Made by a program: the position numbers and the translations under genes
Part shown: piece by piece, positions 62,153 through 62,929 of the stretch
How positions within the stretch are numbered: position 1 is the first letter of the stretch
How the letters are laid out: each line of letters starts with the position of its first letter
The notes under the pieces: generated by a model
Databases searched by the model: none
What the model was told of the DNA's origin: nothing
What the model saw: the letters and a program-made list of their open reading frames with translations, nothing else
Assembly (NCBI GenBank): GCA_035765535.1
Contig: DASTXE010000005.1
Coordinates: 137,171-201,170, forward strand
Direction: 5' to 3'
DNA from: Rickettsiales bacterium
GTDB taxonomy: Bacteria; Pseudomonadota; Alphaproteobacteria; Rickettsiales; JABCZZ01
Length of the DNA: 64,000 nt

Positions 62153-62929
62153 CTAATCTTTTGGGGATAGAGCCAAAGCCTCTTCCATAGTCATCGCTCC
62201 CTTTCTGCAACGCTCGACAATCTCATCAAAGCTAGCTGTAGATTCTTTAAAATAACGAGAAAACCATCCCCATTTGGCTAACTTAATTAATTCGTCAGAT
62301 TTTTTATATTTATCAATATTGTGGGTTGTTAACTTAATGACCCAGTCTCGCCACCAAGAGGGGCATCGTATTAGTGTATCGTCTAGATAATCCAAGTGTA
62401 AAATCCCATCAAAGTCTTCCTTTATCATTTTCCCTACATACGCTTCGGCTGGAGCGGCTATTGGTAATACATCATCTGATACTACTATTCGGGGATAGAT
62501 TGCGACCTTGGATTCCATTTCGTATGCCCTATTAAGTCCTTCACCAAAAATAATGCCTTTATGGTGGTATATATTTCCAAGAGTTAAACTTCCTCGTAGA
62601 AGAAAACCATCACGCAAAGTTCGAATGATTAGTGAACCAACAATCTTTCTAAATTCCACAATTACCCAATCCAGAACCTTATGCTTCTTTAAAGGTGCGA
62701 TAGGATAAGAGACGACCAAATGATCAGAAAAGGTGCTAATTGCCGGGTTCATTTCTATCATATTTCCCGGAATTTCCTCAATTTGATACTCTCTTTTTAT
62801 GCCCGCTATAATTGTAAGCAACTCCTCAATTATATCGATTATCTCTTTATTGCTACGAATGGCATCTTTGAATCCGAGTAAATCTATATACAGGATAATA
62901 TGGTCTTGGTATTCTTCGGGAGAGGACAT
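62153..62929 (-). CDS. orphan AT-rich protein with a class III nucleotidyl-cyclase / GGDEF-type palm-like N-terminal domain and a Trp-rich C-terminal tail
   Basis: 258 aa. HIILYIDLLGFKDAI, AISTFSDHLVVSYP and FLLRGSLTLGNIYHHKGIIFGEGLNRAYEMESKVAIYPRIVVSDDV occur in the order and spacing of cyclase-homology-domain motifs. The start codon is 23 nt from the tRNA-Phe 3' end. Confidence 0.6.
   Translation of the reverse strand: MSSPEEYQDHIILYIDLLGFKDAIRSNKEIIDIIEELLTIIAGIKREYQIEEIPGNMIEMNPAISTFSDHLVVSYPIAPLKKHKVLDWVIVEFRKIVGSLIIRTLRDGFLLRGSLTLGNIYHHKGIIFGEGLNRAYEMESKVAIYPRIVVSDDVLPIAAPAEAYVGKMIKEDFDGILHLDYLDDTLIRCPSWWRDWVIKLTTHNIDKYKKSDELIKLAKWGWFSRYFKESTASFDEIVERCRKGAMTMEEALALSPKD

Follow-up and report, generated by a model that had tools for sequence, protein, structure and literature searches.

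Why does an AT-rich gene of no obvious affiliation stand alone directly behind a tRNA gene, and what might its product do? The question is raised by a 64,000-nucleotide (nt) stretch of DNA from a Rickettsiales bacterium (GenBank assembly GCA_035765535.1, contig DASTXE010000005.1, forward-strand positions 137,171 to 201,170; hereafter the window), in which a complete open reading frame (ORF) at positions 62153-62929 on the minus strand encodes a protein of 258 amino acids (aa). A sequence-only reading had recognised in this protein three hallmark segments of a nucleotide-cyclase or palm-type fold, exactly those peptide segments that the ORF carries, and had offered two alternatives, a single-gene system or the orphaned signal generator of an anti-phage system of the Pycsar or mCpol kind. 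We find that the window protein is well supported as a member, in the short form that stands alone, of a family of cyclase-like toxins of the PanT(Bur. phage) type (phrog_23933), with its homology secure in the sequence comparisons given below. As the best explanation, to which we assign a probability of roughly 0.6, the gene encodes a self-contained, dimeric, two-metal growth-arrest enzyme of the PanT type that uses nucleoside triphosphates (NTPs), was horizontally acquired, and is kept latent by a restraint other than PanA.

The CHARACTERISED relative, and the closest one characterised, is PanT(Bur. phage) (YP_293707.1), the gp8 product of the Burkholderia P2-like prophage phi52237. The gene lies 3 nt downstream of gp9 (DUF4065), between the integrase gene and the portal gene Q, and adjoins a BrnT/BrnA pair. 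This locus is the defence hotspot that P2-like phages carry between gpA and gpQ, close to cos (Rousset et al. 2022, PMC9122126). The same pair has been validated as PanA/PanT(Bur. phage), a type II toxin-antitoxin system (Kurata et al. 2022, PMC8832971). In that work PanT, described as a "putative nucleotide cyclase" of toxin cluster pT58/T47, was toxic in E. coli and was neutralised by PanA (DUF4065) via complex formation. It inhibited transcription more than translation, and translation more than replication, leaving ATP unchanged and GTP slightly reduced; RelA-dependent ppGpp was induced without being the cause of the toxicity (PMC8832971). HHpred matched PanT and an Advenella relative to adenylate/guanylate cyclases at 97%, and a toxic cyclic nucleotide was only proposed as the product of PanT (PMC8832971).

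The link between the window protein and PanT was observed at two levels. A family profile built from 123 sequences aligned with PanT at 99.6% probability (hhalign, E 1.9e-23) over 230 columns spanning both the core and the tail, and a direct BLASTP comparison of the two proteins gave E 1e-10 at 26% identity. PanT keeps every core invariant of the family (D, G, S-D, R-G, G, E, P-R), with position 146 sometimes Ala or Ser in full-length members of its clade. A tblastn search with the intact module of P0082, a fused member described below, gave matches in six P2-like Burkholderia phage records, and in all six the gene lies in the defence hotspot.

The family is far larger than its annotation suggests. 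The window protein had no match, even at E<=10, in Pfam, NCBIfam, PADLOC or the PDB sequences, and its identical (100%) database entry is a "hypothetical protein" from a Rickettsiales metagenome-assembled genome (MAG). A word-indexed search returned 20 relatives. When 1.84 billion cluster representatives were searched exhaustively with the profile, 13,194 clusters (at 50% identity) were returned at E<=0.001, of which 9,407 remained at E<=1e-10 and 1,942 at E<=1e-30. As canonical cyclases score ~13 bits against the family profile, they cannot explain these counts. The window protein matches phrog_23933, of "unknown function" (E 4e-22), and a tblastn search with it against GenBank phages gave no match. 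Family members also occur on 68 PLSDB plasmids (Bacillus, 28; Acinetobacter, 14; Rhizobium, 8; others), where they are always annotated as hypothetical.

Searches with more divergent members gave the same picture. Pfam found no family in the 123 relatives, with PF00211 among the top families in 0 of 123, and a single fused member reached 15.1 bits against PF00211, for which the cut-off is 21.9. PADLOC assigned no PycC or other defence model to the window protein, to five divergent members, or to five long or fused forms. Two members, P0187 (Paraburkholderia tropica) and P0235 (Hymenobacter crusticola), bear the UniRef name "Guanylate cyclase domain-containing protein", which means that at least some automatic pipelines detect the domain that Pfam misses. 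We also noted that P0120 (474 aa) carries a C-terminal extension of ~220 aa, rich in Asn and Ile and without a Pfam, PHROG or PADLOC match, which is a candidate for a fused accessory or effector domain.

The fold was assessed with an AlphaFold2 model based on a 20-sequence alignment (predicted local distance difference test score, pLDDT, 90.1; predicted template modelling score 0.87). All 50 of the top 50 Foldseek matches in the PDB were class III nucleotidyl cyclases (E 3e-5 to 2e-3; template modelling score 0.45-0.59 on target length), including Ma1120, mammalian adenylyl cyclase (AC) C1/C2, Rv1264, Rv1900c, soluble guanylate cyclase and CyaC; the Pycsar uridylate cyclase 8jsz came 29th. Neither Cas10 nor mCpol structures were present among these 50, and a fold search against BFVD returned nothing significant. 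Profile searches against PDB sequences, using 20 or 123 members, gave cyclase matches that were sub-threshold (E 0.2-1). In the sub-threshold hidden Markov model (HMM) alignment to Rv1625c, the strand bearing D16 is in register with F-x-D-I-x-G-F-T, and the G129...E139 helix with G-x-x-V-N-x-A-x-R-x-E-S. The class III cyclase-like fold proposed from the sequence was thus borne out by the model and its uniform fold matches.

Together, the model, the fold matches, the HMM alignments and the invariant columns delimit a predicted class III cyclase-like palm core of residues ~8-160 (62450-62908, minus strand). This comprises beta1 (D16-L-L-G19-F), a beta-hairpin (F67-S68-D69), a strand with R112-G113, a helix (G129...A135...E139), and a strand with Y145-P146-R147. 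Across the 123 relatives (~30% identity), D16, G19, S68, D69, R112, G113, G129, E139 and R147 are invariant, which argues that the three hallmark segments did not arise by chance, and conservation is at least 90% at L18, F67, G118, H122, A135, P146, D174, G175, Y181, W220 and W222. The full-length window copy keeps all 14 residues that are invariant in its closest relatives, as well as all nine that are invariant in the 123.

The predicted first metal-binding Asp, D16 (codon 62882-62884, minus strand), lies at the end of beta1 and is aligned to the Asp of FaDIvGFT in the adenylate cyclase 5o5k. The predicted second, D69 (codon 62723-62725, minus strand), lies in the turn between model strands 63-67 and 70-76, which form the beta2-beta3 hairpin. 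Judged from the model, palm enzymes hold their pair of metal-binding aspartates in this same topology. That the sequence-only reading singled out D16 and D69 as key acidic residues is supported by their invariance in the 123 relatives and by their loss only in degenerate tandem copies (see below). The positions equivalent to the transition-state Asn/Arg pair are variable in the family (consensus G-E-A-L-x-E-A-Y-x-L-E-S), with the window protein having N133 but E137. With the Asn/Arg pair unconserved, cyclisation is not established as the reaction of this class III-like fold.

Downstream of these elements, a beta-hairpin bearing D172-x-D174-G175...Y181 (residues ~161-181; 62387-62449, minus strand; model strands 169-171 and 177-179) is near-invariant in short-form members, with D172 changed to Ala in the PanA-linked clade. 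A C-terminal helical tail follows (residues 182-253; 62171-62386, minus strand), modelled as helices 182-188, 191-210, 214-242 and 248-253 with pLDDT mostly >90. The Trp-rich helical tail of the sequence-only reading is present, at ~75 aa (182-253 in the model) instead of 95; residues 165-181 form the conserved D-x-D-G hairpin and still belong to the core. The tail motif K219-W220-x-W222-F223 is conserved, with K-[W/Y]-x-W kept in divergent plasmid members and K-N-A-Q-L found in the PanT clade. We also noted a weak profile match of tail residues ~184-250 (62180-62380) to the homeobox-type domains 2cuf and 4j19 (E 0.04-0.17); the match has its centre at the K-W-x-W-F helix, which resembles W-F-x-N, and is too weak to serve as evidence of DNA binding.

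Natural gene fusions bear on the oligomeric state. In P0082, P0143 and P0157, the whole module is tandemly duplicated within one polypeptide, and in each of these one copy keeps D16, G19, S68, D69 and R112 while the other has lost several of them. The degenerate copy is copy a in P0082 (G19N, S68Y, D69N, R112C), copy b in P0143 (D16H, G19D), and copy a in P0157 (D69N, with the D16 region unalignable and an E in the raw sequence). Kept in both copies are G113, G118, G129, Y145-P146-R147, D172-x-D174-G175 and Y181. In pseudo-heterodimeric class III cyclases, both subunits contribute to each active site, and one of the two sites can decay. From the pairing of one intact with one degenerate set of residues, we infer that the single-module proteins act as homodimers, with D16, D69 and R112 as catalytic residues and a possible contribution in trans from R147 and the D-x-D-G hairpin. 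A separate observation concerns a Bradyrhizobium sp. locus with two divergent tandem paralogs (6221-7234 and 8001-8834) with a 127-aa ORF between them; of the two, the upstream one (337 aa) is without an alignable D-x-D-G hairpin and tail, and the two may form an unfused heterodimer.

How the window protein relates to an antitoxin-guarded toxin becomes clearer when the family is divided by architecture. A PanT-seeded search yielded ~60 clusters that form a Burkholderiales-centred clade, marked by an N-terminal extension of ~48 aa, with position 172 occupied by Ala and the K-W-x-W-F motif replaced by K-N-A-Q-L; the listing for the PanA-linked toxin cluster pT58/T47 in the Kurata supplement has three members (PMC8832971). 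An intermediate group has the N-terminal extension and keeps W222, and short forms such as the window protein lie beyond it. A SocA_Panacea (PF13274) gene lies directly upstream in four of four N-extended members with readable loci (phi52237, Pandoraea L037, L038/L039 and L040), against no PanA-like gene at any of ~30 other loci, including all short-form loci examined. The stand-alone short form is thus the usual one, and guarding by an antitoxin is exceptional. Loss of the tail Trp motif was considered as a correlate of PanA pairing and rejected, since intermediate PanA-linked members keep W222; across the sequences compared, the N-terminal extension is the better correlate. Two plasmid members (L009 and L033) have long annotated N-termini and no PanA, so the extension is necessary, but not sufficient, for the PanA link.

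The solitary state was also apparent when the neighbourhoods of the short form were compared. An all-against-all BLAST of the ORFs at 26 loci found no shared neighbour family, the next-best cluster after the focal gene spanning three loci, and in about two thirds of the loci there is no co-oriented ORF of at least 50 aa within 80 nt. No effector-like partner recurred in ~30 loci. The contexts of the short form are heterogeneous but recurrently tied to conflict or mobile DNA. On an Agrobacterium plasmid the family gene lies near AbiEii, PP2C, PLD and Gabija-like GajA/GajB genes; on a Ruegeria plasmid AbiEi/AbiEii are directly upstream; and a Rhizobium plasmid carries VapBC, Phd/YefM and IS6. 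At another locus, the gene sits between a 1,483-aa AAA_11/12 helicase and a Type ISP restriction enzyme. Modules resembling integrative and conjugative elements (ICEs) supply SSB, PD-(D/E)XK, UvrD, DUF932 and BglII genes, other plasmids place the gene directly after repABC, VirD4 or ParM/relaxase, and integrases and PIN or helix-turn-helix genes are found among the three neighbours on either side. Elsewhere, the family gene is a lone insert between housekeeping genes (argB/fumC, queF/parC).

Two further observations were made in these neighbourhoods. Loci L008 (5153-7307) and L031 (4037-8031), from unrelated hosts, carry a similar module of SSB, a ~264-aa hypothetical protein and PD-(D/E)XK beside the family gene; such modules are typical of ICE or plasmid transfer regions, which suggests a shared mobile backbone. 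Among the three neighbours on either side at 25 loci, PADLOC scored one as a bona fide Pycsar cyclase (PycC, E 1.7e-79) and others as PDC-M21B/C.

In the window, the gene stands out by composition. The ORF has a G+C content of 0.382 (0.347 at third codon positions), compared to 0.513 for the whole window and 0.55-0.60 for the flanking polyprenyl synthase, tRNA-Pro and DUF4440 genes, so the low G+C noted by eye is confirmed, and the gene appears, judged by its base composition, foreign and horizontally acquired. A co-oriented tRNA-Phe(GAA) gene (62953-63028, minus strand; ARAGORN, with an Rfam tRNA score of 72.3 bits) lies directly upstream, and a spacer of 23 nt (62930-62952, minus strand) separates its 3' end from the ATG, exactly the distance first reported. 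The flanks are otherwise ordinary (OmpW, NTP transferase, polyprenyl synthase, tRNA-Pro and DUF4440/SnoaL). We found no integrase in the 59-64 kb part of the window, no repeat of the tRNA-Phe 3' end, with up to three mismatches allowed, anywhere in the window, which stops ~1 kb past the tRNA, no second family copy in the 64 kb, and no PanA-like sequence there by tblastn with one PanA, a search of limited sensitivity.

The "classic island position" assigned to the gene therefore holds in part. Of the features of tRNA-targeted islands, the compositional anomaly 3' of a tRNA is present, and neither an integrase gene nor a direct repeat of the tRNA's 3' end was found in the parts searched. The tRNA adjacency is also particular to this window, as none of seven scanned homologue loci has a tRNA within ~8 kb. 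Similarly, the statement that the gene has no co-oriented neighbour is correct at operon distance, and too broad beyond it, since tRNA-Phe and a 134-aa ORF upstream share its strand. This ORF (63256-63660, minus strand, 65% G+C, with AT-rich sequence beyond it at 63700-64000) has three distant homologues only and no Pfam domain. At the two readable loci, its homologue lies upstream of the fliQ/fliR/flhB flagellar export genes, in one case between fliE and fliQ, and never beside the cyclase-like family. The ORF has a history of its own and was rejected as a partner.

At the distal edge of the low-GC segment, a 26-nt tRNA-Pro-like fragment with a hairpin (62124-62149, plus strand) is an 85% direct copy of the D and anticodon arms of tRNA-Pro(CGG) (61644-61669), and its 17-nt anticodon stem-loop is an exact reverse-complement match to tRNA-Pro. 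The fragment overlaps the stop codon of the convergent DUF4440 gene, exactly at the border between low-GC and host-like sequence, and could be either a tRNA-derived recombination scar or a shared bidirectional hairpin. Within the 5' third of the ORF lies an antisense sigma-70-like site, TTGATA-18-TATAAT (62783-62812, plus strand; 11/12 matches), directed at the ORF start codon and tRNA-Phe. As similar sites occurred in 3.7% of first-order Markov resamples of the region, we treat it as a lead and not as evidence; it could possibly drive a candidate antisense regulator.

With these results, the proposed mechanism can be set out. The gene would have arrived as a ~0.8-kb insert beside tRNA-Phe, and would probably be transcribed by read-through from the tRNA promoter, which is the simplest reading of a minus-strand scan from tRNA-Phe to the ATG that gave no promoter-like site of the gene's own. 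Its product has a class III-like palm core with an intact D16/D69 pair and the conserved R112-G113 strand, and would form a head-to-tail homodimer in which active sites are shared between subunits, as in class III cyclases. Two-metal chemistry on an NTP would then give either a nucleotide product or the nucleotidylation of a target. By extrapolation from PanT, transcription would be shut down first and translation second, with ATP not drained. The activity of the short form would be latent, whether autoinhibited, poorly translated or dependent on a trigger, and the gene would serve as a single-gene conflict module on mobile DNA, acting in abortive infection, exclusion or addiction, and not as a signal generator awaiting an effector. 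This reading agrees with the single-gene alternative of the sequence-only reading, which is the one of its two proposals that our results support. A bolder version, in which the short form is a single-protein abortive-infection or exclusion enzyme, a latent class III-like palm dimer whose hairpin and Trp tail sense an invading phage or plasmid and whose new nucleotide blocks RNA polymerase directly, we regard as fairly unlikely.

Several points weigh against the growth-arrest reading. Toxicity is an extrapolation from PanT, which belongs to a distinct clade, shares 26% identity with the window protein, has the N-terminal extension and the D172A change, and has lost the tail motif. Without an antitoxin, a toxin that is always active could not be maintained, and latency is therefore an assumption of the reading. 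The equivalence of D16 and D69 to the metal-binding aspartates comes from alignment and topology, not from a residue-level superposition, and with the Asn/Arg pair not conserved, "cyclase" may be the wrong chemistry. For the dimer geometry, the model of a tandem-fused member reached a pLDDT of 50 and was discarded. Finally, many homologue neighbourhoods are plain housekeeping, and the association with defence, while recurrent, was counted without a background comparison.

The alternative explanations each fit fewer observations than the growth-arrest reading. The gene could be a passenger, either neutral or in decay: an orphaned toxin gene, now silent, attenuated or being lost, that has no current role in this genome. 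This would agree with the lack of a promoter-like site, with the lack of a Shine-Dalgarno-like sequence in the 23-nt spacer (62930-62952), and with the absence of a partner gene; likewise, several MAGs carry the family gene as a lone insert between housekeeping genes, some with fragmented neighbouring genes, and split or truncated family copies occur at two genome loci (L024 and L027). We nevertheless consider it unlikely, given that the window copy is full length with all 14 and all nine invariant residues in place, and that the dominance and wide conservation of the short form over thousands of clusters need purifying selection.

That the protein is an orphan second-messenger generator of the PycC or mCpol kind, with its receptor or effector elsewhere in the genome or a generic host receptor, appears to us quite improbable. 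The class III fold (with 8jsz among the matches) and the intact acidic pair would suit such a role, toxicity of PanT without ATP depletion fits a catalytic signal better than bulk NTP consumption, and one family locus has a real PycC nearby. The PADLOC searches described above, negative for the window protein and for the divergent, long and fused members alike, and the variable Asn/Arg pair speak against it, and so does PanT itself, which is toxic alone in E. coli, a host without a cognate effector. A sequence-level bridge to PycC was also sought by regular expressions and by hhalign against 142 neighbour proteins, the PycC-scoring one included, and recovered the tandem paralog only. Nor is the related idea of a lost effector supported, as no effector recurs in ~30 loci and PanT is itself the toxic component, not an upstream signaller. 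A benefit to the mobile element other than toxicity, such as an enzyme that counters host defence by destroying, mimicking or pre-empting immune nucleotides as a plasmid or phage enters, would suit both the PHROG membership and the leading-region-like positions at plasmid backbone/cargo junctions beside SSB and PD-(D/E)XK genes, but is very unlikely, as lone chromosomal copies without mobile-element genes (the window, L001/L002) would gain nothing, the sole tested member is a toxin restrained by an antitoxin, and phage matches were absent for the window protein and confined, for the family query, to the six defence-hotspot records.

Returning to the growth-arrest reading, the kind of protein is known, through one validated toxin and one paper; what is new is its dominant, partner-less and unannotated variant. 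The family had previously been regarded as minor, with three PanA-linked genes in ~20,000 genomes by the published listing (PMC8832971). That picture changes with a family of 13,194 clusters that is missing from Pfam, NCBIfam and PADLOC, whose common form stands alone on plasmids, in prophage-like elements and defence islands, and as lone chromosomal inserts, and in which naturally fused tandem members, each with one dead site, suggest that the enzyme is a dimer whose subunits share their active sites. It raises the question of how a toxin-type enzyme is restrained without an antitoxin, and what nucleotide chemistry stops transcription without using up ATP; the degenerate tandem halves are natural controls for such work. 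To a specialist, the fold itself will be unsurprising, and the family size, the absence of the antitoxin and the tandem pseudo-dimers are worth following. If true, the single-protein abortive-infection reading would imply new chemistry, a new sensor-effector architecture, and thousands of unannotated genes.

Several known systems share features with the window protein. mCpol (Panoptes), the Cas10 palm and GGDEF proteins are likewise small palm-domain nucleotide enzymes of conflict systems, but mCpol and its kin were absent from the top 50 fold matches, no GGDEF Pfam match was found, and there is no 2TM-beta or CARF-TM neighbour; as PADLOC v2 (2023) is older than Panoptes, mCpol was judged by fold matches and neighbours. 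The Pycsar cyclase PycC shares the class III fold, to the point that 8jsz is among the matches, and occurs in anti-phage contexts. Unlike PycC, the window protein has no PADLOC PycC match and no adjacent transmembrane or TIR effector, and in the tested relative PanT the cyclase-like protein is itself the toxic component.

CapRel, a fused toxin-antitoxin (PMC9712102), serves as a working analogy only: in both cases a toxin family comes in two versions, a two-gene pair neutralised by PanA and a single polypeptide that must restrain itself until triggered. CapRel is, however, an unrelated toxSAS of pol-beta-like fold, and its C-terminal domain is a demonstrated antitoxin and sensor (PMC9712102), whereas the tail of the window protein is also present in PanT, and autoinhibition by it would be hypothetical.

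Closer in structure are the class III cyclases (PF00211; Ma1120, Rv1625c, Rv1900c, AC C1/C2, guanylate cyclase), which have the same palm fold and strand order, the Asp at the end of beta1 followed by G-F, the Asp of the beta2-beta3 hairpin, the Arg-x-Gly strand, and the G...A..E-S helix. The tandem-fused members with one degenerate site mirror their C1/C2 pseudo-heterodimers. The window family differs from them in having no Pfam match at E<=10, no conserved Asn/Arg pair, and no regulatory or membrane domain, and in its additional D-x-D-G hairpin and Trp-bearing helical tail. PanT differs from the window protein in its N-terminal extension of ~48 aa, the Ala in place of D172, its K-N-A-Q-L tail, and the preceding SocA_Panacea antitoxin gene. 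It remains the nearest known counterpart, homologous over core and tail, with the same invariants and the same predicted cyclase-like fold, and both genes are cargo of mobile or variable DNA.

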